IMG/VR virus record: IMGVR_UViG_3300042486_000183
Span: 1-40,323 of that record
DNA length: 40,323 nt
Reading direction: 5' to 3' (one strand)
Source: a virus
Taxonomy: Duplodnaviria > Caudoviricetes
A program made the position numbers and the translations under genes. Every line of letters starts with the position of its first letter. Position 1 is the first letter of the stretch. Shown here one piece after another: positions 2-31,150 of this stretch. The notes under the pieces were generated by a model, which did no database searches, had not been told where the DNA came from, and saw nothing but the letters and a program-made list of their open reading frames with translations.

Positions 2-1276
2 GCAATACTTGCTAATGGCAAATTAGATTATGGCAAACTAGGTGAAATTAGACAAGCTGTATCTGACATTAAAGACCTTAAGGCAGGTTATGACTTAGGG
101 GCTAAGGAGTATGAAAGAATGCTTCAAATAGGATTAGCAAACAAAGAAAACTTAACGAGCTTTGAAGGTTTTTATAAGGATTTGTCAGCTAAAATGTCTG
201 ATGAGAACTTGATTAAGAATCCTCGTGATTTGCAAACTGCATTAGCAGATACTTATACCAAAAGTTTGGATGCTACTAAGATGTATATTAAATCTTTTGT
301 AGGAGCAAATCCTTATCAGCCATTATTTAAGGAAGTTAAAGATGCTAAAGGTAATTTAATTCGGGTTCAAGGAGAATTACCAGTTGGATGGGATGCAGAT
401 GCAAGCGGTAAGCTTATTCCTCCAGCTCCAGTTACTATTCAAAATGCCGACGGAACAACTTCTACTGTTGATTATGCCGATAGAACTGTTGCTCAAATTA
501 AGGCAACTAATCCAGATGTACTTGCAGCAATGCGTCGTCAAGCAGGATTTGCAGGTCAAAATTTAACTGACAAGGAATTAGTGGAATTTTATACTACTAA
601 AGTTCCAATGTCAGCTAAGCCACAGCAAATAGCTTCTGCTGACGAGTTAAAGGGTAAAGCTGCTCAGGCTGAAAAACTTACATTTGAGGCTAAAATTGCT
701 CCAGAAGAATGGGCAATGAAGAAGAAACTTATAGCAGCACAAATTGCAAATTATCAAGAGCAAAGTGGTGGCGGTTCAGGAGCGGCAAATTGGCAACCTA
801 AAAGCTTAGGAGATTTGGGAATTACAGTTAATCCAAATGGAAAAATTGCTTCATTTGGAGGAGATGGAATAAAGATTGATGTACCAACAGGAACTAGAAG
901 GCAACCAGGGGCAACGGTTCCATTTAAAGCTGTTAGAACAAGAACACTTGCGAATGGGAAACGTCAAGTTGGCGGATATTATTTAGATGCTGAAAATAAG
1001 ACTAGAAATCCTCAGTTAATCTATGTAGACTATGATGAAGGAAGTAATCAAATACAAAGCGGATTGACTTCTGCAATTAATAAAATGCCAAAAGAAGATA
1101 GGCTATTTTATCAGACACAATTGCTTAACTTTGATAAGGCAGAAATACCTCAAAAGCAGACTAGTTCTACTCCTTCAATGTCTAATAGTGATATATTAAG
1201 TTACAAACCAAGTAATTGGAAGGCAACTGATGCTGAGTTTATTTCGGCATTTAAAACTAAAAATAACATAAAATAA
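2..1276 (+). CDS. Probable internal virion/ejection protein, 5'-truncated by the window edge
   Basis: The frame of track ORF 119..1276 is open back to position 2. Its stop overlaps the start of the giant gene (TAATG). Function is inferred from position only. Confidence 0.55.
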   Translation, partial: AILANGKLDYGKLGEIRQAVSDIKDLKAGYDLGAKEYERMLQIGLANKENLTSFEGFYKDLSAKMSDENLIKNPRDLQTALADTYTKSLDATKMYIKSFVGANPYQPLFKEVKDAKGNLIRVQGELPVGWDADASGKLIPPAPVTIQNADGTTSTVDYADRTVAQIKATNPDVLAAMRRQAGFAGQNLTDKELVEFYTTKVPMSAKPQQIASADELKGKAAQAEKLTFEAKIAPEEWAMKKKLIAAQIANYQEQSGGGSGAANWQPKSLGDLGITVNPNGKIASFGGDGIKIDVPTGTRRQPGATVPFKAVRTRTLANGKRQVGGYYLDAENKTRNPQLIYVDYDEGSNQIQSGLTSAINKMPKEDRLFYQTQLLNFDKAEIPQKQTSSTPSMSNSDILSYKPSNWKATDAEFISAFKTKNNIK

Positions 1277-4200
1277 TGGGCAAACGTCAATTTGTTATTC
1301 CTACAGAAAAAGATATACAATTATTATCTAGCAGCAAATTTGCTATTCCTACTGAAAAAGACTTAGAACTTTTCTCTCAAAAAAAAAATCCAAACCAACC
1401 CGATATGGGGTTATCTGGGGTAAAAGCTTCTGCGGATACGAATCAGGAAGAGGATGGGTTTTTCTCAAACTTTGCTAAGGATTTAAAAAATATTGACTTA
1501 GCTAAAGACTTTAAGAATACTGTAATTAATGATTTTAATGCTGTTAAAGACTTTGTAACTTCAACGGGCAAAGGGGCATATGCTCGTATGGCAAAATCTG
1601 GCACAGAAATGGGTCGTGAATTTGCTGTTAATATACTTCCTGATATGTTCTTTTCTAAAGAGAAAATGACATTTGACCAGAAGATGGATGCCTATAATAA
1701 AAACATAGCCTTACCAGTTGAAAAGGTTATGCCAAAATTTAGACAAGGGGCTAGTGCAGATATATACAGCGAGAAAGATGGATTAAGAATACCAGATGCA
1801 GACGCCCTAGGTCAAGTAGTTGGTGAGCAACTAATGCAATTAGGTTTAAATTCTAATACAGGTGGACTTATCCTTAATCATTTAGCTAATACAGAATCTA
1901 ACTATCAAGAAGCTAGAGCTAAAGGATTATCTAATACTGAGGCATACACTATGGCTCATACCATTGGTCTTACAGAGACTTTAATGGACAAATATCTTGG
2001 TGTTGACAAACTAGTAGGTAAGGCTATGCAAAAAGCTGGTTCTACGCAGATTGGTAAAGACGCCGTACTTCAATTAGCAAAAGACGCATTAGGTCAGGAA
2101 TCTTTTGCCGCTGGAATTAAGACAACAGAAGGCGCATTTAAGCGTTTACTTAAGCAGGCAATCTTGCCTGAGGCAGGAGATGAATTCTTACAGACATACG
2201 CTTCTGAGGCAGAAAAATTATTATTTGATACTTATAAAAAGGCTAAATATTCTGACGACGACAACTCTAAGTTAAATATTTATGATGCTGATTTATTGTC
2301 TAAGAAGACTTTTATAAATGCCTTAAATTCAGGATTTGTAGGAGGATTAATAGGTAGTATGGGTGGAGCAATTGTAGGCACAGATAGCTACAATCCTACT
2401 GTATACGCAACACTATTAAACTCTTATGATTCTAATGGTAAGAATGGGCTAGCTGAGGCACAGGTTGAGGTATTAAATGGTATTAATAAGGCAGTATCAA
2501 AAGGAACATTATCTCAAGAGGATGCTGCTAAAGCTCAGAGAAGCTTAGAGTTGATTGGACAAAACATTGCATCATTTGACCAAAAGTCAGACCTTGACGA
2601 ATACTCTAGATATCAAGTATACAACTTCAAGAACAATGTAATCCCTGGGGCAGTAAATAGTATGGCAGTTGATTTTGCTAAGTCAGTTGCATCTAAAGAA
2701 TCTCCTAGCCAAGATGCTATAAATAATGATTTAGAAAATGGGAATACAACAGAGTTTTCTGTAAGAGGCTCGATAGCAAATGCTCCATCTGAGTTCAGAC
2801 AATTTATCGGCAAAGAGGCTGTTGAAGATAATGGAGAAATGGTATTTAAAGGTCAAATACCAAATTCTTTAATTCAAGCAGAAGAAAACAATAACGCTCA
2901 AATTCAAGCCATAGCACAAGAAGCTGCAGGGGCGTTGGCGTCATTAACAGACAACGAGAGAATTGTTAGCGTAGACGATATTAAGAGACTTGGTCAACAA
3001 GGTTCTCCTATATTTAAAGATTCAAGAAATCAACTTGCGTTTGAATATGCATTCCAGCAAAACGAGAAGGCATTCCAAAAACAAGCAAGAGGCATTAACT
3101 TGTTAAAATCTATTGTAAAAGAAATAGAGACAACACAAACGCCTTTAGAGCCTAATGCAATTCAGCAAAGAATAGAGAACTTATATAAGTTTAATACTGG
3201 GGATACAATCTTTGTAGATAATAAGTCAGCTAAGATTTTAGATATTAGTAATGACGGACAAAAGCTTAAGGTATCTGGATTTAATGAACAATTAAATGCA
3301 AGTGACCCTAGAATTGCTTTAGCCGATGAGCCTATGCCAGAAGTTATGGTTGAAGGTCAAGTTGAGCAAGCGCCAATTGAAGAAGCGCCAATTGTAGCAC
3401 AAGAAGAAGTTAAGCCATTAGCTGAGGAAGAGCAAATCACAGGCAGAACTATGCGTGATGCTGTATATGAATTAATTCCATTTACTTACAGAGGAGAGAC
3501 AGGGGAGATATATAAACAACGCAATGGAGTTGTAGTATTTGAAAGCCCTAATCGAGTTTACGAATTTGGAAACATTAATGATATTGGTGACAAGTCTATT
3601 GACGAATTTGATATTATTCCTCAGGAGATGGAGATTGGAAATGATTTCTCTGTAACTATTGATGGAAAGAAATTTACTAATAAGAGCCAGAATCCTTTCA
3701 AAGCAATCACATACGATGCTGAAGGAAACGCTGTATCTATTAAATTAGATAATGATAAGGGACAGACTCGTGTAATTAAAGGTTCGCGAGCTATGTTAAT
3801 TGACGCTAATTATAAAATAAAACAACTTTTCAATGATGCAACAAGAGACCAACTTGCAGCCGCAGCAGATGATGCCGCAAGACAAGCAGCAGCAACTCCA
3901 GAAACTACAGGAGAGCCTAAACAAACTACCCCTACAACAGAGAATAAACCTGTTGAACAAGCACCTTCAATTGCTCAACAAGAAAGAGCCGCAAGAATTA
4001 GAGAAATAGCTAAAAAATTAGCTGAGCAAGAGAATCCGCAAACCACTAAGAATAAACAGAGTATTGCTAGTTTAGCTAACTCATTGTTTAGTTCAGGCAT
4101 TAAGGTAGAGGTATTAAGCAACGAAGGCATAAAGGCTAAATACGGAAAGACTGTATCTCAGGGTATGTTCTTGAGCCAAGAAGGTACTGTTGTAATTAAC

Positions 4201-7200
4201 GAGGATATGCTGCCTAGTGAATGGGGAAAGACAGTTATCTTCCACGAAGGTACTCACCCTATTATTAACATTATTCGTAATACTGAGCCTAAGTTATATA
4301 AGCAGTTAGTAGCTGCGGCACAGCAAGAAGCTAAGGACAATCCAGAGGTAAACGCAATCTTACAACAGATTAAGAATAGCAAAGCGTATGGCGATGAATT
4401 TACTCGTAATGATGAATTAGTTGTCGAGATGATTGCGCGTGTAGCTAGTGGAAGACTAAACCTTAATAACGTTAAGCCTAGTCTTAAGCAGGCGTTTATT
4501 GACTTTGTTAATAAGATAGCTAAGATGATGGGATTAAATCCTGTGCTTAGTGATTCTGACCAAGTTGCTTTCTCTAGATTAGCTAACCAAATATCAAGCA
4601 CTTTAAATACAGGTCGCGATATTGCAGAAATTGTTGGAGCTGAGAATGTAACCAAATTTGCTATTGCATCAGATGTTAATACAGAGAGCGAAAATAGCGC
4701 AATTTATGGTGGTGGAATTCAACAATCAGAGATTGAAAGGGCTAAGGTTTCAAATAAGCCAGTAATTAACGTATACAAAACAGAAGGTGTTTCTGAATTG
4801 CCTGTAAGGTCTTTAAAGGAGATATATGATACTTATGGAGGCAAGGTCGTATTTATTAATTCTGACCCAACTAAAGTAGGGAATCTTAAACTTATTTCTG
4901 GTAAAGAAATATTCCTTTACGGAGGTCCTGAGTATATGTCTTTAACAAAAAATGTTGAAGGGAATGTTGGATTTGCTACAACACTAGAATCTAAAGTAAG
5001 GACTCACGATAAATTAAGAAATAAAGTATTTGGCGACAATAAAGGAGTTACAATTGTAGCAACGCAATCTCCTGACTCTATTATGTCTAACTCTTATTCA
5101 TTAAGATACATTCTTGATGCAATAACTCAGTTACCTAAAAAGATAACTTCAGACCCTGTATTTAAAAAAGAATTTTTTGGTGAAGATATTAAAGCTTTAC
5201 AGCTTGCATTTGGCACTGAAGCATATGATGCTTTCCTTAAGAAATTCAAGAATACAGATTTTAGTTCAGCAGAATCTATAGGCTTAATGATAGATGAATT
5301 AGGATATAAATTATCAAGTGCTTCTACGCCAGCAAGTTTTAAGGCAAGAAAAGCTTTAACTAATAATCTTGTAGCAGGATTTGTTACTAAAAGCTCTAGG
5401 GTAGACACGAAAAATGAGAAGGGTTTTGTTTCTGTCTCATCTAAAAAATTCATAGCAAAATCTTTATTTGATGAATTTGGCGTAAATGCTGAAAGTATCA
5501 TTAAAAAAATAGGGAATAAAGATATTGTTGATAAATTCTTTGATGAAGGGATTTGGGGATTAGCAGTTAGTGGATTTGAGACATCTCCAGAATCAAACTA
5601 TGGTTCTATTCAAGATAAAGGCGTCGAACATCCATTATTTAACGCTAAATTCTACGGAGAAAATCCGTTTAAATTAGATGCAGCTTATAAAGTTGATGAC
5701 TTGATTTTGCCTATTGAAAGCAAAGAAAGTAAGCTTGGAAAACTTTATGTAGATAAATTTGGAAATCCAGACCCATATACAAAGAAAACATCATTACAGT
5801 TAGCAGCTTCAATTTATGTTGGTGGAGACATTGAAGCTCAACTTTCTGATATTGAGAGAGAAACTCTTATCGCTCCTAATGGTAAGCCATCTAACTTAAA
5901 CGCAAATCAGTATAGCCAAGTAAGAACTCCTGAGTTTAAGGCTTGGTTTGGTGATTGGGAGAATGACCCAGAAAACGCATCTAAGATTGTAGATGAGAAT
6001 GGCGAGCCAATGGTTATGTATCACGGTACGTCTAAAGACAAAGACTTTGATACATTTAAGATAAGCGATAGGGGTGCCTGGTTTAGTAGCTCGCCTGAAG
6101 AAGCTTCTAGCTATGCCTCAAGTAATGATAGTCAGAAAATGAAGTATGACTTTGATTCAGGAAATTATATCAAAATAAATACTTCGTCTCGTGTACTTCC
6201 TGTATTTTTAAATATAAAAAATCTTGCTAGACAGGAAGATATTGATAAAAATATATTAGATGAATACAGAAAAACAGGCAACAAGAGCTATAGAAATGCA
6301 CAGAAATATTTATTTAATCAAATTCGATACAATGACAGAACTGTAGAAGGATTTGCTTTTGATAAAAAAGAGGCAGGAGCGGCTTATAATTATGCGCAAG
6401 TAATTGTTCTATTTGATGGAAAAACTTTAAAAGACGGAGATTATTACAGATTTGTTAGTAATCAGCCTAATATAAAATCTGCAATTGGAAGTAAATTTTC
6501 TCCGACGAATCCTAAGATTCAGATGTCTGAGATAGACCGTACTTATTCACCAGAAACTACTGTTGCTGATGCGGGTATGACAATGGCTGAGAGAGAGGCT
6601 TGGAGAAACAAAAACAAAGTAAGTCAAAAGCAGAAGAGAGTTCCTGTAGTTATGCAGGCGTCAAGAGACCTATACAATGGGAACATTACTTTTGATGATT
6701 ATGTAAAGACTGTTCGGGATAATATGGCTATTATGCCGTTTACAGATGTACCTAAGATACCTTCTCTAAAAGAAATTATTTCTGCTTTAAATGAAGATAA
6801 ATTAAGTAGTGGAGGAGTAGTTGGCGTCAACCGTTCATTTAAAGACGGGGAAAGAGTTGCTAGTAGATTAGATATTCCAGCATACGAAAATTATGATACT
6901 TGGGTTGTATCTATTCACGATTCAGCAAAAGAGAGAATTCTTGGGTATGGACAGACAGCTGTATTAAAAAATGTTCAGTTCAAAACGAGTCCTAAGATTG
7001 GTCTTTCTATAGCGGCAAATGCCACCTTCTTAAACGATATGGATAAGGAGGGTAAAGGTAAAGCTACAATTGCTCGTATCCACGGAGATTGGGTAAATGA
7101 ATCCCCTGAATCAGCACACAAAAGAGCAACTGAATTAATGAATGACCCTCAATGGGTACAGGTTGGGATGAATCCATTCCGCCATAGTTTCTTTTATGAT

Positions 7201-10200
7201 AAATCAACTGGGGAAGCTGTGACGTCTGCCGAGGAGGTTATTCAGATTGGGGCATTAGTGTTAGCTAAAAATCCTGTTAGAGCACCATTTGGAAGTCAAG
7301 CATTTATTGACAACTTCTCTATGAAAAACAAACTAGGAGAAACTATCCAGTTCTCTGATATGAACCGAGACGACAAGCGCATTCAGTTTGTTAGAGATAA
7401 CATCAATAACTACTCTAAGTCAGAATTGACTGAAGGTTTGATGCAAGCGTTCAATATGAGTAAGGATGCAGCTGAGCGTATTGTTGCTCAAGCTACAGCT
7501 GACCCATTAGCACCATCTATTCCTCAAGATAATCCTGATACATCTATCCCTAAGGGAGCTAAACTTAATCAGAAGAGCGAAACTACAGAAGAATATAATA
7601 GTGGTTATGATAAAGCCAAGAAAGCTCTTCTTGAGAAAACTGGTATTTCTTGGGATAAGTTGAAGAAATACATTGCAGAAGAGTATGATAGCAAATTCTT
7701 TGGAAGAAGAAATTTAGGTCAAGCTAGTTCTCAAGAAAGTTTAGCGCAGGCTAGATTAAGAAACCTTAATGGTATAGCTTACTCTGCAAGTCAAGACTTA
7801 GCAGTAATCTACAATGATATCTTTGGTAACGGTCTAGAGGCTGAAGGCGAGCGTACATTAAATGCAATGATATTTAATCTTCGCATACTTCAAGTAGACG
7901 CTAATACTGAAGCTAAGTTTGCAGACGAAATAGAGAAGTTAACACTTGAGTTTGCTGATAAAAATAATAGATTACCTAGTTCAGCTGAGTCTGTATCTAT
8001 TCAGAGACAAGCAAGACTTAATGTTCCTATCAAGAAGCACGGCAAGACTTTAGATGGCTCAGTTGATGCAACATCTGCAACAGCACAAGCTTATTTAGAC
8101 GCATTACGAATAGAGTTAGGTGAGTCTGAATATAATATGCTCAAAGCTCGTGCAGATATGTATCGCAAAGTTGGAAATGAGCAAGTAGCTAAATTACAAG
8201 CTGCTGGCATTATTTCTAAAGAAGTTGCTGACAATTTTAAGGATGACTTCTATTCATATAGAAAGACACTAGATAGACTATACGGTGAGCAAGATTTGTC
8301 AATAACTATGCTTAGCGGCGTTGCATCTATCAAAGGTTGGGCATCGTTATCTAAGGAAGGTACAGAAAACTATCTTGAGCAAGATGCACGTCTTCTATTA
8401 GCTGAAAGTTATGTGGGAACGGCTAGAGCGATTGCTAAGAATAAACTTAGAGAATCTATATACGAGGAGAATATTAAGATTGACGAAGACGGAAATGAGT
8501 CATCTGTAATTGATAAAAATGGCAATAAAATAACGTTCATTAAACCTGCAACATACATTCGTGATAAGGATGGAAACATCCGCTCTAATAATAAGCAATT
8601 ATCTGTTAGAGATGCAGATGAAGGATATGTTAATGTTCCATTCAAGAAAAATGGTGTCATTAATTTCTTTCAGATGGAGCGCGAAATGTTTGACCAAATA
8701 GAAGGCAATAATATCGTTTGGAATGATGCGAAAAATTCAAATGCCTTAGGCAATGCTTACTATTATGTGACAGATAAAACTAATAGATTGCTTACAGGTA
8801 TGGCAACTAGAAAGAACCCAATGTTCTGGATAGGTAACGTACCAATGGACTTGCAGCAACAAATATTCTTTACAGATATCTGGACTCAGGGCAATGTATT
8901 ACAATCAAACGTTTACTCAGCGGGAGCAAGAGCATTCGCAAGAACAATTAAATTCTCTAATTTCTTTGGTAGAAATAAAGATTTTGTAGACAATACCCTA
9001 GAAGAATTTATTTCAGCGGGTGGAGCTATGGACAGAATGTCTACAATGAAAGAGCAGCGCGAAAGAACTATTAAGATAGCTCTTAATGAGGGAGAAAAAA
9101 ATCCTAAGTTTGAGATGATTAAGAAGAAAGCTAATGCATTTTTCTTTGGACTTAATGAAAGAACTGAACTTGCAATGAGACTAGCAGCTTACGACCAAGC
9201 TAAGAATAATCTTATTAAGAAGTTTAAGGAAGACAATGGCTCTAATCCATCAGAAACTGATATGCTTAAGATTCAAGAAATCGCAGCATCTCAAGCTAGA
9301 GGATATACGGATTTTGCACAGCGAGGGAAGAACTTACCTAACTTGAACATTGCTTACTTAAACTCAAGTATTCAAGCTGCTGGTAGTGCATTAGAGTACT
9401 CAGTGGATAATCCTGGAAAAATTGCTTCAAAGCTATCTCAACTTGCTATTGGTAAATTTGCAGGGACTATTGCTTTGATGGCTATAATGGGAGAGGCTTA
9501 TGACGACTTAGATGAGTACACTAAGGATTTATATTCATTTTTATACTCTCACGACTTAGCAATAAAAGATGGCAATGGGAAACCTATTCAGGTTGTAGCT
9601 ACTGTAAAAAATAACCCTTCTTTAGTTCCATTTATGGGGGTTACAAGAACATTTGCTGAGATGACAATGAGATACTTACAAGGCAAAGAACAAAAAGAAA
9701 TAACAGCTCAGGGTTCTGCAGATAGATTCTTTGAATTGATTAATATCTCTTCGCCTATACCAATTCCTAATGTTACATCATTAGACGGTATAACTAGTTC
9801 TGCAGCAAAAATTGTAACAAAGCACACATTATTTAATGCAGCAATAAAAGCATATGGCTATGATGCATTTAGGGGAAAGGATGTTATTAGCGTAGCTGAT
9901 GAGAGCTTATCTCCTTATATGAGAGGAATGAATGACAAGAATGTAGCTTATTTCTACAAGGCTATTGCTAAATCTATGGCTGATAATTCATCAAATAATC
10001 AAATATCGCCAGCTAAGATGCAAGCGGTTGCTGAAACATTTATTACATCACCTGCTACGAATGGATTCGTTGCGATTGCTTATGGTGTATTATCTAGTGC
10101 AGCAAATACAATTGTCCCAGCTGAAAGCCAATCACAAAGAGGAGATTATGCAATAGGAGATGCAAGTAAAATAATTAAATCAGTCACTAAGAGATTTGCT

Positions 10201-10662
10201 TCATACACTGATTCAGAAAAGACAGAGTTTAGGAAGAATGAGGAGCTATACAAGAAAAGTAAAGAGGAGGCTATGAAGTACAATGACATTGAGAGAAATA
10301 TCGATGTCAAGCTAAAGGAACTTTATAAGACTGACCCTAATAATTTCTTTAATAATGTAGATGCGTTTGCTAAAGAAAAAGGGTTCTTTGATAATGATAT
10401 CTTAATGGAAAGAATTGACCGCAAAGCTGACTTAATAGATAAGAATGAATATAATCGCTCATTTATTAAAGAGAATATTGCTAATGAGGTTAGAATCCTT
10501 CATTTTACTCCAGGAGCTGAAGGTAAAGCTAAGTTGTTGAAGTATATGTTTGAAAAGGATGCAACTAAGGCAAGAGAAGTTATTGATGGAATGATTGACT
10601 ATGGAACGTCTAAAAAAGAAGCATACGACGCAGAAGATTTGTACTTAAAAACAATTAAATAA
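1276..10662 (+). CDS. Giant polyvalent (probably virion-ejected) protein, 3128 aa: zincin-type metallopeptidase, ADP-ribosyltransferase-like module, LPD38-like C-terminus
   Basis: VIFHEGTH...ELVVE (HExxH, nt ~4243). VRTPEFKAWFGDWE...VDENGEPMVMYHGT...GAWFSSSPEEASSYA...VLPVFLNIKN is typical of polyvalent-protein ART domains. The C-terminal part has E..MRLAAY...ARGYTDFAQRG...AYLNSSIQ, as in the region leading into LPD38 domains. Confidence 0.75.
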   Translation: MGKRQFVIPTEKDIQLLSSSKFAIPTEKDLELFSQKKNPNQPDMGLSGVKASADTNQEEDGFFSNFAKDLKNIDLAKDFKNTVINDFNAVKDFVTSTGKGAYARMAKSGTEMGREFAVNILPDMFFSKEKMTFDQKMDAYNKNIALPVEKVMPKFRQGASADIYSEKDGLRIPDADALGQVVGEQLMQLGLNSNTGGLILNHLANTESNYQEARAKGLSNTEAYTMAHTIGLTETLMDKYLGVDKLVGKAMQKAGSTQIGKDAVLQLAKDALGQESFAAGIKTTEGAFKRLLKQAILPEAGDEFLQTYASEAEKLLFDTYKKAKYSDDDNSKLNIYDADLLSKKTFINALNSGFVGGLIGSMGGAIVGTDSYNPTVYATLLNSYDSNGKNGLAEAQVEVLNGINKAVSKGTLSQEDAAKAQRSLELIGQNIASFDQKSDLDEYSRYQVYNFKNNVIPGAVNSMAVDFAKSVASKESPSQDAINNDLENGNTTEFSVRGSIANAPSEFRQFIGKEAVEDNGEMVFKGQIPNSLIQAEENNNAQIQAIAQEAAGALASLTDNERIVSVDDIKRLGQQGSPIFKDSRNQLAFEYAFQQNEKAFQKQARGINLLKSIVKEIETTQTPLEPNAIQQRIENLYKFNTGDTIFVDNKSAKILDISNDGQKLKVSGFNEQLNASDPRIALADEPMPEVMVEGQVEQAPIEEAPIVAQEEVKPLAEEEQITGRTMRDAVYELIPFTYRGETGEIYKQRNGVVVFESPNRVYEFGNINDIGDKSIDEFDIIPQEMEIGNDFSVTIDGKKFTNKSQNPFKAITYDAEGNAVSIKLDNDKGQTRVIKGSRAMLIDANYKIKQLFNDATRDQLAAAADDAARQAAATPETTGEPKQTTPTTENKPVEQAPSIAQQERAARIREIAKKLAEQENPQTTKNKQSIASLANSLFSSGIKVEVLSNEGIKAKYGKTVSQGMFLSQEGTVVINEDMLPSEWGKTVIFHEGTHPIINIIRNTEPKLYKQLVAAAQQEAKDNPEVNAILQQIKNSKAYGDEFTRNDELVVEMIARVASGRLNLNNVKPSLKQAFIDFVNKIAKMMGLNPVLSDSDQVAFSRLANQISSTLNTGRDIAEIVGAENVTKFAIASDVNTESENSAIYGGGIQQSEIERAKVSNKPVINVYKTEGVSELPVRSLKEIYDTYGGKVVFINSDPTKVGNLKLISGKEIFLYGGPEYMSLTKNVEGNVGFATTLESKVRTHDKLRNKVFGDNKGVTIVATQSPDSIMSNSYSLRYILDAITQLPKKITSDPVFKKEFFGEDIKALQLAFGTEAYDAFLKKFKNTDFSSAESIGLMIDELGYKLSSASTPASFKARKALTNNLVAGFVTKSSRVDTKNEKGFVSVSSKKFIAKSLFDEFGVNAESIIKKIGNKDIVDKFFDEGIWGLAVSGFETSPESNYGSIQDKGVEHPLFNAKFYGENPFKLDAAYKVDDLILPIESKESKLGKLYVDKFGNPDPYTKKTSLQLAASIYVGGDIEAQLSDIERETLIAPNGKPSNLNANQYSQVRTPEFKAWFGDWENDPENASKIVDENGEPMVMYHGTSKDKDFDTFKISDRGAWFSSSPEEASSYASSNDSQKMKYDFDSGNYIKINTSSRVLPVFLNIKNLARQEDIDKNILDEYRKTGNKSYRNAQKYLFNQIRYNDRTVEGFAFDKKEAGAAYNYAQVIVLFDGKTLKDGDYYRFVSNQPNIKSAIGSKFSPTNPKIQMSEIDRTYSPETTVADAGMTMAEREAWRNKNKVSQKQKRVPVVMQASRDLYNGNITFDDYVKTVRDNMAIMPFTDVPKIPSLKEIISALNEDKLSSGGVVGVNRSFKDGERVASRLDIPAYENYDTWVVSIHDSAKERILGYGQTAVLKNVQFKTSPKIGLSIAANATFLNDMDKEGKGKATIARIHGDWVNESPESAHKRATELMNDPQWVQVGMNPFRHSFFYDKSTGEAVTSAEEVIQIGALVLAKNPVRAPFGSQAFIDNFSMKNKLGETIQFSDMNRDDKRIQFVRDNINNYSKSELTEGLMQAFNMSKDAAERIVAQATADPLAPSIPQDNPDTSIPKGAKLNQKSETTEEYNSGYDKAKKALLEKTGISWDKLKKYIAEEYDSKFFGRRNLGQASSQESLAQARLRNLNGIAYSASQDLAVIYNDIFGNGLEAEGERTLNAMIFNLRILQVDANTEAKFADEIEKLTLEFADKNNRLPSSAESVSIQRQARLNVPIKKHGKTLDGSVDATSATAQAYLDALRIELGESEYNMLKARADMYRKVGNEQVAKLQAAGIISKEVADNFKDDFYSYRKTLDRLYGEQDLSITMLSGVASIKGWASLSKEGTENYLEQDARLLLAESYVGTARAIAKNKLRESIYEENIKIDEDGNESSVIDKNGNKITFIKPATYIRDKDGNIRSNNKQLSVRDADEGYVNVPFKKNGVINFFQMEREMFDQIEGNNIVWNDAKNSNALGNAYYYVTDKTNRLLTGMATRKNPMFWIGNVPMDLQQQIFFTDIWTQGNVLQSNVYSAGARAFARTIKFSNFFGRNKDFVDNTLEEFISAGGAMDRMSTMKEQRERTIKIALNEGEKNPKFEMIKKKANAFFFGLNERTELAMRLAAYDQAKNNLIKKFKEDNGSNPSETDMLKIQEIAASQARGYTDFAQRGKNLPNLNIAYLNSSIQAAGSALEYSVDNPGKIASKLSQLAIGKFAGTIALMAIMGEAYDDLDEYTKDLYSFLYSHDLAIKDGNGKPIQVVATVKNNPSLVPFMGVTRTFAEMTMRYLQGKEQKEITAQGSADRFFELINISSPIPIPNVTSLDGITSSAAKIVTKHTLFNAAIKAYGYDAFRGKDVISVADESLSPYMRGMNDKNVAYFYKAIAKSMADNSSNNQISPAKMQAVAETFITSPATNGFVAIAYGVLSSAANTIVPAESQSQRGDYAIGDASKIIKSVTKRFASYTDSEKTEFRKNEELYKKSKEEAMKYNDIERNIDVKLKELYKTDPNNFFNNVDAFAKEKGFFDNDILMERIDRKADLIDKNEYNRSFIKENIANEVRILHFTPGAEGKAKLLKYMFEKDATKAREVIDGMIDYGTSKKEAYDAEDLYLKTIK

Positions 10663-22297: not shown

Positions 22298-23719
22298 TTA
22301 AAAAGGGGCTATTTTTACATCGTTATCAAAGTCAACTTCCATCTTAGATAATACAGAGTTCTTGTAGGCAGGCTCTTGTACCGTGAACCTAAACAATTCA
22401 TCCTCTTCATCCATAATTCTATTAGTAGTCACATCACAATACCTAACCACACCGCCTGTCATACCATCTCTATTCTTTAGTAATATAAACTCTAGCGTGT
22501 AGTCTATATCAGGAACGGGTAAGTTGTTGGCGCGCGCATCCGCTTGAGCATAGTAGTATGGTCTATACAATCCAATAACAACAGATGCATCCTGCTCGAT
22601 ATTCCCCGAACTTCTGATATCAGATAACTGAGGACGCTTGTCGCTTCTACCCTCAGCACCACGAGATAGTTGACTTAGGCAAATGATTGGAATGTTCAAC
22701 TTCCTAGTTAACTTCTGTATCTTATTGGACACAGATGATACCTGAGTAAAGTCATCCTGCCCGCGCATCTGATTGTCTCGAATCAACTGCATATAATCTA
22801 TCACCACAATATCTATTCTATTCTTGCGACACTCTGATGTCAACACCATTGATAGGTAGTTGATGTCTCGATTGTCTGAGTCGTAAAAGAATATAGGTAA
22901 TCTCTTAAGTTCTCTAGCATTAGATAATCTAATCTTAGCTACGTCATCTTGGGTGATTCGATTAGCCTTGATGTCCGAGTACTTATAGTCGGGTGCTTCA
23001 GATGAAATGTAGCGATACATCAGCGATTCCTTCGGCATCTCCAAAGAAAGAAACAAGACACGCTTACCTGCCTTAGCGGAGGCTTTGGCGAAGTCTAATC
23101 CAACGATAGTCTTTCCCATAGAGGGACGTGCCGCTACAACAATCATCCCCTCTTGCCATCCACCTAGTGCATAGTTTAACTTCCGTGAGCCTGTGTCTAT
23201 TCCCGAAAACTTTACATTGCCAGCGTTAGCTTCTAGCTTATCCATCACGTTGTCGTAAACTTCGCCAAGGGAAAAGATTTCAGAACTAACTGAACTTGTC
23301 TCTACAAATGATACACCCTGTTCGATGATGCTCTGAATAACAGATACATCCTCGCCGTGGGTTATTGCCTTATCTATCTCATTAGCTATAGACTGATAGA
23401 TTCTTTTCTGTTCTAATGCCTTTAATTCTTGACACGCTGAAGTCAACTCAATCGTTGTCTTTGGAGTCATTGTTAATAGCTTAGGCGGTTCGTCTGTTAA
23501 GAACCGAGAACTATCGCTGATGGGCTTAAAAATATCAAAACGAGTGTACGCCTTATTACTTAAATAAAACTCTCTCATCGCCAAATATGCCGTCCTGTGG
23601 AGGTCGTAAGTAAACGCATCCTCCCCTATTATTTTAACCGCGTCCTTAACTAGGTGTGGTTTATCTAATAGGTAAGCTATTACGTCTTCTTCTAGTAACT
23701 TATCGTGTGTGTGTGCCAT
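22298..23719 (-). CDS. dnaB: DnaB-like replicative helicase
   Basis: AARPSMGKT, IDYMQL, LSQLSR..EGRSDKRPQLSDIRSSGNIEQDA, KNRDG. Confidence 0.97.
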   Translation of the reverse strand: MAHTHDKLLEEDVIAYLLDKPHLVKDAVKIIGEDAFTYDLHRTAYLAMREFYLSNKAYTRFDIFKPISDSSRFLTDEPPKLLTMTPKTTIELTSACQELKALEQKRIYQSIANEIDKAITHGEDVSVIQSIIEQGVSFVETSSVSSEIFSLGEVYDNVMDKLEANAGNVKFSGIDTGSRKLNYALGGWQEGMIVVAARPSMGKTIVGLDFAKASAKAGKRVLFLSLEMPKESLMYRYISSEAPDYKYSDIKANRITQDDVAKIRLSNARELKRLPIFFYDSDNRDINYLSMVLTSECRKNRIDIVVIDYMQLIRDNQMRGQDDFTQVSSVSNKIQKLTRKLNIPIICLSQLSRGAEGRSDKRPQLSDIRSSGNIEQDASVVIGLYRPYYYAQADARANNLPVPDIDYTLEFILLKNRDGMTGGVVRYCDVTTNRIMDEEDELFRFTVQEPAYKNSVLSKMEVDFDNDVKIAPF

Positions 23720-23721
23720 TG

Positions 23722-24369
23722 TTAAAAGTTGTCTGGTATTATGATTTCCGTAATCTTAGTTGTTGCTATTGGAGTTGTCGTTAGCGTAGTGTTTGGTATC
23801 TCATCCTCCCATACTCTATGACTAAGGTATCGCTCAGGGTCTTTCCTATACTTCACTTCTCTAGTAGCTATGTAATTAGGTAGCGCTAAAAATATAGCAT
23901 CTATCTCTTTCTCTTTTAACTTAATCCATTTAGCCTTAGTCTTATCCTTACCTACCTTCTTATTATAGATATTCCAAAAATCTTCAAAGCGCTCAATAGA
24001 GTTATTATTTTCTTTTTTATTATATTCTTTATTATGTGCCCCTGTAGGGACAGAGGTATGCCCTTCTACGGACATAGGGGTATGTCCCTGTAGGGACATA
24101 GGGTATGTAAGTCTAATCTCCCTAGATTCTATCTCATTATTAGCCTTTCTTTTTATTACCGAATTTATAAGATTCATTGATTCTAGCTTGTATATACACT
24201 TTCTAATACCTGATACTCCTATCCCAAGTGCATTCCCCAAGTAAGCATTACTAGCAAAGCAGTAGCCTTCCTTAGCCGACAAACTATGAATTAATCCCAT
24301 CAGATTTTTTTCTGATGCGGTCAAATCTGTTCGCGCCAATAAATCATATGGGATTGTTATAAAATTCAT
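23722..24369 (-). CDS. Phage replication initiator (N-terminal HTH, lambda-O-like layout)
   Basis: CFASNAYLG HTH, internal iterons, C-terminal FEDFWNIY.KK...KDPERYL...WEDE; immediately upstream of dnaB. Confidence 0.85.
   Translation of the reverse strand: MNFITIPYDLLARTDLTASEKNLMGLIHSLSAKEGYCFASNAYLGNALGIGVSGIRKCIYKLESMNLINSVIKRKANNEIESREIRLTYPMSLQGHTPMSVEGHTSVPTGAHNKEYNKKENNNSIERFEDFWNIYNKKVGKDKTKAKWIKLKEKEIDAIFLALPNYIATREVKYRKDPERYLSHRVWEDEIPNTTLTTTPIATTKITEIIIPDNF
24001..24098. repeat. Replication origin: three palindromic 16-bp iterons plus AT-rich tract inside the initiator gene
   Basis: TGCCCCTGTAGGGACA 24037-24052, TGCCCTTCTACGGACA 24059-24074, TGTCCCTGTAGGGACA 24083-24098; AT-rich 24001-24035. 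Confidence 0.8.
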
Positions 24370-27238: not shown

Positions 27239-27568
27239 TTAAATTTTAATTGATTGCTTATTTATTTTGATTGTTCTATCTGCAAAAATTCCAACCCTTA
27301 TCTTTGTTTTGCAGTGAATGAAATAACCTATATTATCATCGTCACCTCCTATGTATTGCATAATATCCCCACTATTAAAGTCATCTAATACATTATTTGC
27401 ATCTCTTAGTAAAACCAAATCACCTTGTACAAGAGTATTATTTTTCCTATCAAGTATTGGAGTTTCAATGTTGCATTTTTCACATAAATCCCCTTCAAAC
27501 CAAAGGTCGTGTCTGCCTTGTGGATTGCCACATTCGTAGCAGTTCCAAATATCTTCCGCGTGTGTCAT
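27239..27568 (-). CDS. Early protein with N-terminal zinc finger
   Basis: CYECG...CEKC. Confidence 0.65.
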   Translation of the reverse strand: MTHAEDIWNCYECGNPQGRHDLWFEGDLCEKCNIETPILDRKNNTLVQGDLVLLRDANNVLDDFNSGDIMQYIGGDDDNIGYFIHCKTKIRVGIFADRTIKINKQSIKI

Positions 27569-27575
27569 AATAGTT

Positions 27576-27602
27576 ATCGGTTGACCTATGCACCGAAAGG
27601 TT
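27576..27602 (-). repeat. Pre-start hairpin/pseudoknot element, copy 4
   Basis: AACCTTTCGGTGCATAGGTCAACCGAT, 7 nt before the ATG at 27568. Confidence 0.8.
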
Positions 27603-27609
27603 ATTGTTG

Positions 27610-27885
27610 TTAGTTATTCAATGACTCTTTATAAGAATCAAATATGGCTACAAACTCAGGTAGACAATCCTTTGCCGAACGACCTTTCAGTCCGTAGTAT
27701 TTTTTGATGTCCGTAAACTTGATACCTCTACAAGTCATCCCTGAAGCCATTATGCTTAGGTTAAACTTGTGCACCGCTAACTGATATGCGAAATAGTCTA
27801 TCTTACCATTTGCTGAAGATACACTTGGTGTCCGTAGAGCGCCTAATCTAGCTTGCTCAACTGATTGTTCGAATTGTGATTTCAT
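27610..27885 (-). CDS. Hypothetical early protein, 91 aa
   Basis: True start is MKSQFEQ; the track's MYRQPL start lies inside the repeat element. Confidence 0.7.
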   Translation of the reverse strand: MKSQFEQSVEQARLGALRTPSVSSANGKIDYFAYQLAVHKFNLSIMASGMTCRGIKFTDIKKYYGLKGRSAKDCLPEFVAIFDSYKESLNN

Positions 27886-27893
27886 GATAGTTA

Positions 27894-27919
27894 GCGGTTG
27901 CCTATACACCGCAAGGTTT
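27894..27919 (-). repeat. Pre-start hairpin/pseudoknot element, copy 3
   Basis: AAACCTTGCGGTGTATAGGCAACCGC, 8 nt before the ATG at 27885. Confidence 0.85.
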
Positions 27920-27931
27920 GTGATAGTGAAA

Positions 27932-28849
27932 TTACTTGGATAGGATTAATTCTACTGCTTCGTGCGCTTTGGTAGATGCACTCATAATTAACTTAGGGTC
28001 AGACTTCAATTTGCTAATCCATCCGTTGATGTATGCTTGAGAATTTTTGACATCGTCGACGATTGCCTTAATGCCCGTGATAGCCTCTAAATATAGCGCG
28101 CCTAACTCAGCTACCAATTCCTCCTTACTATATTCATCAGAGCCAAAGTTTGCCGTCTTATCAAGGCGATTTAGTCTAGACTCGTGACCCGTAGAGTGTA
28201 TAGCCTCGTGAAAGAATACCTTGTAATAGTCCCCGTTAGATTTCCATTGCTCGGTAGTCTTTGCGGGCATATGGATGTAGTCACCGCTCGGTGAATAGTA
28301 AGCGCGACCTTGACCGCTATGCTTAAGTGTTACCTCCTTGCACCACGCCTCAAGGATAGCTTCAGCGTGTGCATCCGCCTCGAGTTCTGTAACCTCGATA
28401 GGTTGCGCGGGAGTGTCTATGGGCAAAGTCGTTTGAGAGATAGAAAACACCTTGAAAGTCTGTAGGAAAAACGCTTTCTTAGCTTGCTTTTGTAGGTGTG
28501 CGGGTACATCTTCTAAACGTGCAAAATAATTGATCTTGCCCGCGATTTCTACCGCGAAGTTGACCTTCCATAGGTATACATCCGTGGACTTTTCGCCCTT
28601 GTTAACCCTTGCATCCAACTTGCTTACCTGATTGAAAGTAAACCATTTATTTACCCATCCGTTTTCGATTGCCTTAGCTGATAGGATGAACTGATTAACA
28701 CCGCGGTAAGCCTTACCTTGGGAGTTGATAGCGTTCCATTGATTGGTTACGCTATCCTTGAAAGGTTTAAACCATTGTAAGCCTTTAGTCTGTAAGCCTT
28801 CGATGATTGTATTATTGATTTGGTCGATTAATTCTGCTTGAGTTGCCAT
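27932..28849 (-). CDS. ardC: ArdC-like ssDNA-binding antirestriction protein with zincin-like domain
   Basis: WFKPF...YRGVNQ...WFTFNQ...KGEKS; AYYSPSGDYIHMP...FHEAIHSTGH..RL.R...FGS..YS.EELVAELGA...NS.AYI.GW. Confidence 0.9.
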   Translation of the reverse strand: MATQAELIDQINNTIIEGLQTKGLQWFKPFKDSVTNQWNAINSQGKAYRGVNQFILSAKAIENGWVNKWFTFNQVSKLDARVNKGEKSTDVYLWKVNFAVEIAGKINYFARLEDVPAHLQKQAKKAFFLQTFKVFSISQTTLPIDTPAQPIEVTELEADAHAEAILEAWCKEVTLKHSGQGRAYYSPSGDYIHMPAKTTEQWKSNGDYYKVFFHEAIHSTGHESRLNRLDKTANFGSDEYSKEELVAELGALYLEAITGIKAIVDDVKNSQAYINGWISKLKSDPKLIMSASTKAHEAVELILSK

Positions 28850-28860
28850 AAGTTTGTGAA

Positions 28861-28886
28861 GCGGTTGCCTATACACCGCAAGGTTT
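28861..28886 (-). repeat. Pre-start hairpin/pseudoknot element, copy 2
   Basis: Identical 26-mer to copy 3, 11 nt before the ardC ATG. Confidence 0.85.
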
Positions 28887-28900
28887 TGATAGTTGAATAA

Positions 28901-29023
28901 TTACATTAATGGTAAAAGAAAAGCGCAAAGGATTGCGATTGCTATGGCGGTGATTAGTTCGCCCTTGTCTTGAGCCGCCTCTTCCCCTAGGAAGTAAACG
29001 ATTACTTTGTTTAATGATTTCAT
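28901..29023 (-). CDS. Small membrane protein, 40 aa (not in ORF track)
   Basis: MKSLNKVIVYFLGEEAAQDKGELITAIAIAILCAFLLPLM; preceded by the repeat element like its neighbours. Confidence 0.65.
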   Translation of the reverse strand: MKSLNKVIVYFLGEEAAQDKGELITAIAIAILCAFLLPLM

Positions 29024-29035
29024 AAGAATTTTGTC

Positions 29036-29056
29036 GCGGTTACCTACACCGCAAGG
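29036..29056 (-). repeat. Pre-start hairpin/pseudoknot element, copy 1
   Basis: CCTTGCGGTGTAGGTAACCGC, 12 nt before the ATG at 29023. Confidence 0.8.
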
Positions 29057-29071
29057 ATAGTTGAATAATAG

Positions 29072-29113
29072 AACCTAGGAGGGAATCGAACCCTCCGTGC
29101 TCCAAGCTAGGTT
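29072..29113 (-). ncRNA. Minimal tRNA-like element (acceptor stem + T arm, 42 nt)
   Basis: AACCTAG-CTTGGAGCACG-GAGGG-TTCGATT-CCCTC-CTAGGTT. Confidence 0.75.
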
Positions 29114-29339: not shown

Positions 29340-29392
29340 TGACTAGGAAGACTTGCGAAGCCTTGCCACATCCCTTACGCTTGGGCTAGTCA
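29340..29392 (-). ncRNA. Degenerate tRNA-like element (53 nt)
   Basis: TGACTAG/CTAGTCA 7-bp stem enclosing CCC-AAGCGTAA-GGG and AAGGC-TTCGCAA-GTCTT. Confidence 0.5.
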
Positions 29393-29485
29393 TTTGATTA
29401 CATTAACACCCATCTCACCGAGTGTATCGCATTGGCGTCTCTCGAACGTCGCACCATTGAAGGTGTCACAATGCTTATTCCGTTA

Positions 29486-29605: not shown

Positions 29606-29635
29606 CAAAGGTATACTAAACTTTTTGTTTTACAA
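29606..29635 (-). promoter_or_regulatory. Major early Bacteroidota sigma70-type promoter
   Basis: TTG-N19-TACCTTTG on the - strand at the head of the early block. Confidence 0.75.
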
Positions 29636-30371: not shown

Positions 30372-31016
30372 ATGCTTACTTACGATATTAAAAAATCGCC
30401 ACCAAATACTGTTGTGGTTGAGGTTGGTGCTTCAATGGATGACACTGTCCAATACGGTAATTTAAAGCTTCATATAGACCCTGAATTTAATCCTACGCAG
30501 TATGCTAGAATCTATGGTCGCGTAATAGCTGTGCCAGAAGGAAAGGCTTACAACGAGGAGTCTTTTGAGATAGAGAAAGAAGTGCAGGTTGGGGACATTA
30601 TTTACTTTCATTACTTAACTACATCCGATGAAACGAACTGTATCTACGGCAACTATTATAAAGTACCTTATTATTGGATATTTTGTGTCGTTAGGAGTGG
30701 TAATATATTACCTGTTGGTGGCTGGACTTTATGTGAAACGGTGGTTGAGGAAGATTTCAATCAAGTTGAAGTTGATGGTCAGAAAATTGAAGCTATAACA
30801 TCGGCATCTGGACTAGTAATTGGTATCAATAAAAAGCCATCAACTAAGTTCGCTCGATTGTCTCACATTGGTCGACCATTAATTGGAGAAGATGAGTTAA
30901 AAATAAGCCGAGGTGCGCTAGTAATCTTGAATAAAAACTCAAACTTTAAGAACACCATCGAGGGAAAAGAGTACTATACAGTGCGTCAGGCGGATATTTT
31001 ATGTTCTAAAGACTAG
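30372..31016 (+). CDS. Tandem-domain GroES-like co-chaperonin
   Basis: YGRVIAVP...EVQVGDIIYF and ITSASGLVI...IEGKEYYTVRQADIL look like two cpn10-like units. Confidence 0.7.
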   Translation: MLTYDIKKSPPNTVVVEVGASMDDTVQYGNLKLHIDPEFNPTQYARIYGRVIAVPEGKAYNEESFEIEKEVQVGDIIYFHYLTTSDETNCIYGNYYKVPYYWIFCVVRSGNILPVGGWTLCETVVEEDFNQVEVDGQKIEAITSASGLVIGINKKPSTKFARLSHIGRPLIGEDELKISRGALVILNKNSNFKNTIEGKEYYTVRQADILCSKD

Positions 31017-31025
31017 CTACCCCTA

Positions 31026-31150
31026 TGCCCCTGTAGGGACATACCCCTCTGTCCCTAGAAGGACATACCCTATGCCCCTGTGGGGACATACCTCTGCCCC
31101 TAGAAGGGCACATAATATATAATATAATAAATAAGATTAATATATACTAT
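31026..31150. repeat. Second iteron array (four 16-bp palindromic units) plus AT-rich tract, intergenic
   Basis: Units at 31026-31041, 31050-31065, 31073-31088 and 31095-31110 match the initiator-gene iterons; AT-rich tract 31112-31150. Confidence 0.85.

Follow-up and report, generated by a model that had tools for sequence, protein, structure and literature searches.

Four early genes of the phage analysed here are each preceded, at a short distance from the start codon, by a copy of one compact and apparently folded element, and the question is what such a fold does there. The issue bears on how start codons are chosen by Bacteroidota ribosomes without Shine-Dalgarno (SD) pairing; structure close to the AUG is thought to hinder initiation. 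The window, i.e. the whole stretch of 40,323 nucleotides that was analysed, is a phage record (63% complete) in which the plus strand carries the genes for terminase, portal and capsid, and the minus strand those for replication along with small genes.

Element copies and early operon in the window

A match to TTG-N19-TAnnTTTG, which we take to be the Bacteroidota promoter consensus, is located on the minus strand (29606..29635) and is the likely start of the early operon. Relative to this match, all four element copies lie inside the early transcript and not at its start. Together with the SD-free start regions, the promoter match points to a Bacteroidota host. The genes following the elements, all on the minus strand, encode a 40-aa protein with a hydrophobic tail (28901..29023; homologs in relatives), the anti-restriction protein ArdC (27932..28849; 305 aa, phrog_7245), a 91-aa protein (27610..27885) and a 109-aa protein with two CxxC pairs (27239..27568). 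Of the gene names given in the initial annotation, ardC stands (PF08401 and PF18818), the hydrophobic tail is the only ground for "membrane", and the two CxxC pairs visible in the sequence are the only ground for "Zn-finger" in the 109-aa ORF; no Pfam or PHROG match was obtained for the 40-, 91- and 109-aa ORFs.

The four minus-strand copies reported initially are real, as the pattern matches the window exactly four times with none expected by chance and none in 100 shuffles, and a covariance model returns the same four (E 2e-7 to 8e-3). A fifth copy was not found in the window, either by a structural descriptor or by the covariance model, which gave nothing else below E 1.5. The element is 21–24 nt long, and all four copies are intergenic, as annotated. 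Copy 1 (29036..29056), with a short loop 2 of 2 nt, starts 15 nt downstream of a mini-tRNA unit and lies 12 nt upstream of the 40-aa ORF. Copy 2 (28861..28883) is located 17 nt past the preceding stop codon and 11 nt upstream of ardC, copy 3 (27894..27916) 15 nt past the ardC stop and 8 nt upstream of the 91-aa ORF, and copy 4 (27577..27600), which has a compensated outer pair, 9 nt past the preceding stop and 8 nt upstream of the 109-aa ORF. The spacing to the ATG is hence 8–12 nt, and the lower end of 7 nt claimed before was not reproduced. The 5-bp stem is closed by G-C in three copies and by U-A in copy 4, and CCU and AGG are present in all four, with an A-U pair extending their pairing in copy 4; both observations agree with the initial description, as does the 5' flank common to copies 1 and 2. 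Copies 2 and 3 have 27 identical nt, as a recent duplication would leave.

The unit in front of copy 1 (29072..29113, minus strand) is an anticodon-less mini-tRNA with a 7-bp acceptor-like stem and a T-arm, a candidate RNase P/Z cut mark; it gave a weak tmRNA T-arm match in the Rfam search, and ARAGORN called no tRNA at this position. A second tRNA-like unit with a three-way fold (29341..29391, minus strand) lies upstream of a 68-aa ORF and has a counterpart in the relative L123, where an element follows it. A third, weaker unit (29429..29474, minus strand; fold z only -0.4) is found in the operon leader. Relatives carry the anticodon-less tRNA-like units as well as type I hammerheads at gene junctions, and the locus L198 has four mini-tRNA copies without the pseudoknot. 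An additional T-arm motif was seen in the window region 23070-23130 (given as near plus-strand 17200), with L001 also named. Elsewhere in the window, an iteron-like array of 24-nt GC-rich repeats is located within the replication initiator gene (24011-24115) and recurs inverted at 31010-31136 (31.0–31.1 kb), and a virion-type protein of 3128 aa (1276-10662, plus strand) gave a short PHROG match only.

Distribution among phages and hosts

Scanning IMG/VR, metagenomes and GTDB genomes with the pattern gave at least 401 distinct contexts in at least 320 loci (numbered with the prefix L), overlapping loci of one contig being counted apart and many sequences being related, so that the counts overstate independent events. 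Carriers are the crAss-like Kolpuevirus Bc03 (one copy), Bacteroides fragilis phage BF486P1, a 327-kb phage, prophages and ssDNA microviruses (MK496766, MT135418); Bc03 and BF486P1 are culturable. No cultured phage was among the results of a blastn search for one gut phage group. Copies cluster in one region and on one strand in each of five whole records (1–8 per record), and one relative has 13 pattern matches. The strict pattern occurs in at least 27 stretches of cellular genomes, 24 of those listed being titled Bacteroidota, and by our own reading of 51 scanned proteins, 16 of the 27 listed stretches adjoin phage or mobile-element families. The covariance model found no match in 150 other Bacteroidota genomes, with 45 candidates scored per genome. 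The element is phage-side. An integrated microvirus was seen in L306 (587-4361), where a microvirus capsid gene lies within a Bacteroidales contig and is followed by the element, and L188 (1500-1565) has two tandem copies before an acidic protein.

Predicted structure

In alignment A2, CCU occupies positions 7–9, loop 1 position 10, the 5' strand of stem S2 positions 11–15, loop 2 positions 16–19, AGG positions 20–22, loop 3 positions 23–25 and the 3' strand of S2 positions 26–30. With the outer pair of S2 left free, 112 of 132 listed contexts were Watson-Crick paired, with all four pair types (shuffle control: mean 41.5, maximum 65). When positions 11–14 were free and their 3' partner was unseen by the pattern, 53 of 103 paired at all four positions and 78 of 103 when G-U was allowed, with 16 different tetramers (shuffle control: mean 7.3, maximum 16). 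S2 covaries at four of the five pairs, and the compensatory change claimed for the stem is borne out by both counts. In total 44 different S2 stems are known; among 39 distinct stems, G-U was found seven times and A-C once, an excess that fits an RNA made from the coding strand. The covariance model was built from 85 rows with a 3-nt loop 3, and its pair counts therefore lean toward structure. Judged by these sequence comparisons, S2 is almost certainly real.

The pairing of CCU with AGG (S1) is weak on its own (-0.9 to -1.6 kcal/mol). With S1 left free, 32 of 49 matches had both CCU and AGG and 17 neither. Both are present in 100 of 108 metagenome copies, the others being U-G wobbles (three), a broken pair (one) and chance-like sequences (four). 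No compensatory swap in S1 was found in the free-S1 scan, the model alignment or the 108 metagenome copies. Covariation of CCU with AGG, which had been named as a test of the pseudoknot, thus did not appear: the pairing is near-invariant, the wobbles from U-A to U-G being its only change. In natural copies, U9-A20 is broken twice (L071, L366), and one copy in L367 lacks CCU.

In H-type pseudoknots, loop 1 runs across the deep groove of S2, and covariation of base 10 with pair 14-27 is therefore the expected signature of a base triple. Where base 10 is U, pair 14-27 is G-C in all of 69 copies; where it is C, the pair is A-U or C-G in 27 of 29. Counted on 31 distinct stems, the relation holds in 20/20 and 9/11 (p=2.7e-6), and both types occur within single loci (L001, L019, L071, L167, L307). 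A triple of loop 1 with pair 14-27 is thus suggested as a sequence signature. The predicted compact H-type pseudoknot of the initial annotation is probably correct, through the covariation of loop 1 with S2 and not through that of CCU with AGG. In L366 (2960-3000 and 5810-5850), a sister hairpin has the same S2 stem and ATG spacing, its flank and loop containing GC where the element has CCU/AGG, and is possibly a second class. Pseudoknot PK1 of tmRNA, compared by eye in one Bacteroides genome and one phage, does not resemble the element.

CCU, AGG, U15-A26 and A25 form an invariant face of the predicted pseudoknot. Such a face would suit a translational operator, where a bound phage or host RNA-binding protein would turn off the early genes jointly, in the manner of gp32 at the leader of T4 gene 32, and the clustering of copies in one early region per genome and the position of the fold within the initiation footprint agree with it. 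However, six-gene microviruses carry the element, no common phage protein is evident, Bc03 has a single copy and the downstream genes are unrelated, and we consider an operator improbable.

Position relative to start and stop codons

A start codon lies 7–12 nt downstream of 193 of 304 elements, compared to 4% of random sites, and the usual distance is 8–10 nt. The claimed fixed distance is kept in homologs: among protein-clustered cases without SD, 136 of 166 are within 7–12 nt of the start and four are closer than 7 nt. In 42 cases with SD, the distance ranges from 8 to 57 nt. No ORF start was found within 40 nt of 66 of 289 elements. On the other side, the stop codon of the upstream gene is closer than 7 nt in 3 of 214 clusters, with a peak at 8–9 nt, and the start-side window is the tighter one (136/166 vs 91/214). 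Among close stops, 4 of 147 are below 7 nt, though a stop triplet was available at 0–6 nt in 101 of the 147. A floor of at least 7 nt on both sides suggests that the fold is kept just outside terminating and initiating ribosomes. As the stop-side floor equals the start-side floor, the spacing may also be steric packing only.

The spacer has A at -3 in 118 of 186 cases and at -6 in 103 of 186; both positions are initiation determinants according to the available text of PMC6847099. Within the phage family, the spacer lengthens with a short loop 2 (rho -0.36), but not outside of it. In ten relatives, the element was found in 31 junctions of at least 30 nt, while 53 junctions of up to 6 nt and 18 gaps of 30–60 nt are without it.

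Signals in the transcript were considered as well. A stimulator of read-through or frameshifting was rejected, as the upstream stops are TAA in 110 of 123 cases without in-frame bias, and a conserved U-tract is not present at the element. A promoter directly upstream is not enriched (27/177 vs 16/138 and 24/138 in controls). A hairpin-stabilised transcriptional pause has a geometry resembling that of the element, with a 5-bp stem and an 8–10-nt loop about 11 nt upstream of the U of AUG. The element might on this account hold RNA polymerase at the start codon or act as antiterminator. We regard a transcription signal of either kind as highly unlikely, considering that there is no G enrichment at -10 and no pyrimidine-G at a fixed offset in the 94 copies without a near start codon, and that the stop-side floor would be left unexplained.

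Neighbouring genes and RNA processing marks

The 225 proteins encoded downstream of elements fall into 158 clusters of unrelated small proteins, so that no single function goes with the element; most of the 146 representatives scanned are without PHROG. The ardC leader is unstructured and A/C-rich in 9 of 11 close relatives, which indicates gain and loss of the element gene by gene, and no copy was found at 32 distant ardC loci. These two results speak against the ssDNA or hairpin promoter tied to ardC that the initial annotation had offered as an alternative. Frpo-like ssDNA promoters drive leading-region genes such as ardC and consist of a long stem-loop with -35 and -10 boxes; the promoter check and the ardC loci gave no such picture here. 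That the element acts as DNA, be it as an ssDNA hairpin promoter as in plasmid leading regions with ardC or as a protein site in dsDNA, could be entertained given the copy before ardC and the single-stranded microvirus genomes. It can practically be dismissed, since sequence alone cannot be what is read in 44 different stems, the coding strand shows more G-U than A-C, and the spacing follows stop and start codons with no tie to ardC.

In the phage family, type I hammerheads and mini-tRNA units are interspersed along the early operon. By our own descriptors, a hammerhead or tRNA-like cut mark precedes 17 of 285 elements; among forms with the short loop 2 the count is 12 of 31, compared to 5 of 242 among those with the long one. 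The element often lies only 10–16 nt past a hammerhead; two of the hammerheads were confirmed by Rfam, and a single phage family accounts for all seven hammerhead tandems. In six cases, the element is followed by a tRNA or ribozyme and not by an ORF (L038, L313, L180, L173, L144, L033). The tandems with cut marks and these six neighbours count against a role in translation only. In L173 (1502-1596), L144 (1502-1653) and L033 (3000-3080), a pistol or hammerhead ribozyme comes immediately after the element, and L180 is a phage tRNA cluster with tmRNA, the element being located between tmRNA and tRNA-Arg.

The element could itself be a cut site at which cistrons are separated, in the slot used by hammerheads, pistols and mini-tRNAs, either as a minimal RNA that cleaves itself or as a fold recognised by an endonuclease. 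We know of no natural ribozyme that is not far larger than 21–24 nt, a cut 10–16 nt past a hammerhead would be redundant, and no Rfam ribozyme matches the element. One function would, in exchange, cover the ORF, tRNA and ribozyme neighbours among which the element is found, the stand-alone form has the longer loop 2, longer RNAs with extra domains exist (the COG2908-like forms described below), and a review expects more self-cleaving classes in such places (PMC6765202). All in all, a cut site appears slightly more improbable than an operator.

The neighbourhood of cut marks and RNA genes also agrees with a decay insulator, in which the pseudoknot, with or without a host protein, slows RNase E/G scanning or 3' exonucleases at cistron borders and each piece of the cut early transcript keeps its own half-life. 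Such a fold must survive both ribosomes, as the 7-nt floor on both sides (4/147 close stops below it) would provide; RNase E/G is encoded in 60 of 61 Bacteroidota genomes, and H-type pseudoknots, unlike stem-loops, impede RNase E scanning (available text of PMC9943677). In the same text, however, protection is graded with length and modest for an 11-bp pseudoknot, and the element has 8–9 bp. Hammerhead cuts moreover leave a 5'-OH (PMC6765202), whereas scanning starts from a 5' monophosphate, all seven hammerhead tandems belong to one phage family, and the upper limit of about 12 nt to the AUG is unexplained. RNase J was found in none of the 61 genomes, which also renders unlikely the block of a 5'-3' exonuclease at the 5' end that had been suggested initially. 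An insulator is the main, though rather unlikely, alternative.

Proposed role in translation initiation

The initial proposal of a cis-acting RNA module for early genes in SD-poor hosts is supported by the covariation of S2 and the spacing to the start codon, although the element also precedes SD-led genes and RNA genes. We tentatively favour, at a probability of about 45%, a module for landing and positioning the host 30S subunit on the next start codon. According to this proposal, which is built on sequence comparison, the element would sit between uncoupled early genes, and a 3–4-bp S1 (CCU with AGG) would stack on S2, the single base of loop 1 forming a triple with the second S2 pair. In Bacteroidota, the ribosomes of which do not read SD sequences (available text of PMC7797042), the folded unit would end 8–10 nt before the AUG, at about the place of the SD helix; in SD-using hosts, it would lie further upstream and act as a standby site. 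The binding partner would be a part of the host, possibly the 30S platform or bS1, since microviruses of 6 kb, which have no gene in common with tailed phages, use the element. It may be regarded as a swappable leader, as relatives place an unstructured A/C-rich leader in the same slot. The tight limits to the AUG, A-3 and A-6, the leader swap and the use by microviruses together argue for a host partner acting at initiation. Low pairing in the zone from -20 to +20 favours initiation (PMC6847099, in the part available), and a fold at -8 to -32, which covers this zone and A-12/A-13, could thus repress.

Landing on the 30S subunit and insulation against decay are not exclusive. A bolder version of the former, in which the 24-nt pseudoknot serves as a portable ribosome entry module independent of SD and as minimal COG2908 core, docking on the 30S platform at the SD-helix site across phyla and in dsDNA and ssDNA phages, is possible but doubtful. 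If true, no smaller structured translation enhancer would be known from bacteria, and Bacteroidota would gain a ready-made expression part. Insulation, if true, would mean that phages naturally employ obstacles to RNase E/G scanning, and would round off the view of early operons that hammerheads and mini-tRNAs cut into pieces. Unrelated phages keep a defined fold close to the AUG, at a fixed spacing.

Comparison with known RNA elements

A description of the motif was not found in the literature searched, motif strings included, though supplements not covered may list it. COG2908 is not named in the main text of PMC5737381, no motif match was obtained in six supplementary files of PMC10690425, and the motif is not mentioned in the available portions of 2026 genome-language-model preprints and a tRNA-mimic preprint.

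Several known classes were rejected. Riboswitch aptamers (preQ1-I, SAM-II, guanidine-III and others) gave no match at E<=10, and 158 unrelated downstream clusters do not suggest one. No known self-cleaving ribozyme class matches the element in Rfam. A type III antitoxin (ToxI-like), defined by tandem repeats upstream of a toxin gene (PMC3401426), does not agree with copies dispersed one per gene junction and gave no Rfam match. The coremin/xrRNA type of 5'-3' exonuclease block has a different architecture of two hairpins with a YGAD-type loop (PMC10520033, as far as available), apart from RNase J being found in none of the 61 Bacteroidota genomes.

Among phage elements, the leader of T4/T2 gene 32 is the closest in form. 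According to the available text of PMC3014915, it is also a small H-type pseudoknot with two coaxial stems, and an A/U-rich linker to the start codon is common to both. It belongs, however, to a single gene, lies 67 nt upstream, is bound by the gene's own product as a repressor and is not conserved even in RB49, whereas the element precedes many unrelated genes at 8–10 nt and has no known binder. The PeSL cassettes of T4-type phages are likewise short repeats between small early genes with a content variable among relatives, but comprise a promoter and a terminator hairpin per repeat (available text of PMC2839356), and the element has neither. The RNase E obstacles of PMC9943677 have, as far as described in the available text, a compact coaxial H-type fold in a single-stranded leader, like the element; the demonstration was made in E. 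coli and used engineered pseudoknots as well as riboswitch aptamers, and the 8–9 bp of the element would be at the weak end.

Pseudoknots needed for translation are known from toxin mRNAs under sRNA control, the standby pseudoknot of tisB being long-range and located far upstream. The timP leader, in which an upstream pseudoknot is needed for translation, is a precedent for the element, but again with a long-range fold far upstream in a single toxin mRNA under sRNA control and no repeated 24-nt cassette (available text of PMC11228461).

The closest relation was found with the orphan cis-regulatory RNA COG2908 (RF02939). No Rfam family reaches its threshold at the element (searched at the gathering threshold for the whole window and at E<=10 for the region and 20 small loci), in line with the novelty expected initially, yet the 16 nt at the 5' end of the short-loop form are contained in the Rfam consensus of COG2908. 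RF02939 matches the window at three places only, all of them element copies (7.4–8.3 bits, model positions 9–23), and scores far below the gathering threshold of 58.7 bits of this 45-position model, and none of 49 element-bearing records was above the cut-off. By score, the element is not a member of RF02939. Rfam draws COG2908 as a CC/GG hairpin in a three-way junction without S2; its closing stem and second hairpin are absent in the four window copies and present in L532 and L536. In the COG2908-like RNAs L532/L404 and L536/L562, however, an exact S2 partner follows 66 and 82 nt past AGG. These long forms (L532:690-815, L536:388-520) comprise about 110 nt with extra stems and the distal pseudoknot partner, that of L532 being located just upstream of an SD and an AdoMet decarboxylase gene in the 327-kb phage; both are below the cut-off or unscored and have one stem sequence in common. 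Among the other 20 distinct matches listed, two were ordinary short copies and 18 had no distal partner, and no additional long form resembling COG2908 came from a further scan. Because of the distal S2 partner, the short element is likely the minimal core of this larger orphan RNA, in which loop 3 is expanded, and whichever mechanism applies, a corrected structure is suggested for the orphan Rfam family COG2908.
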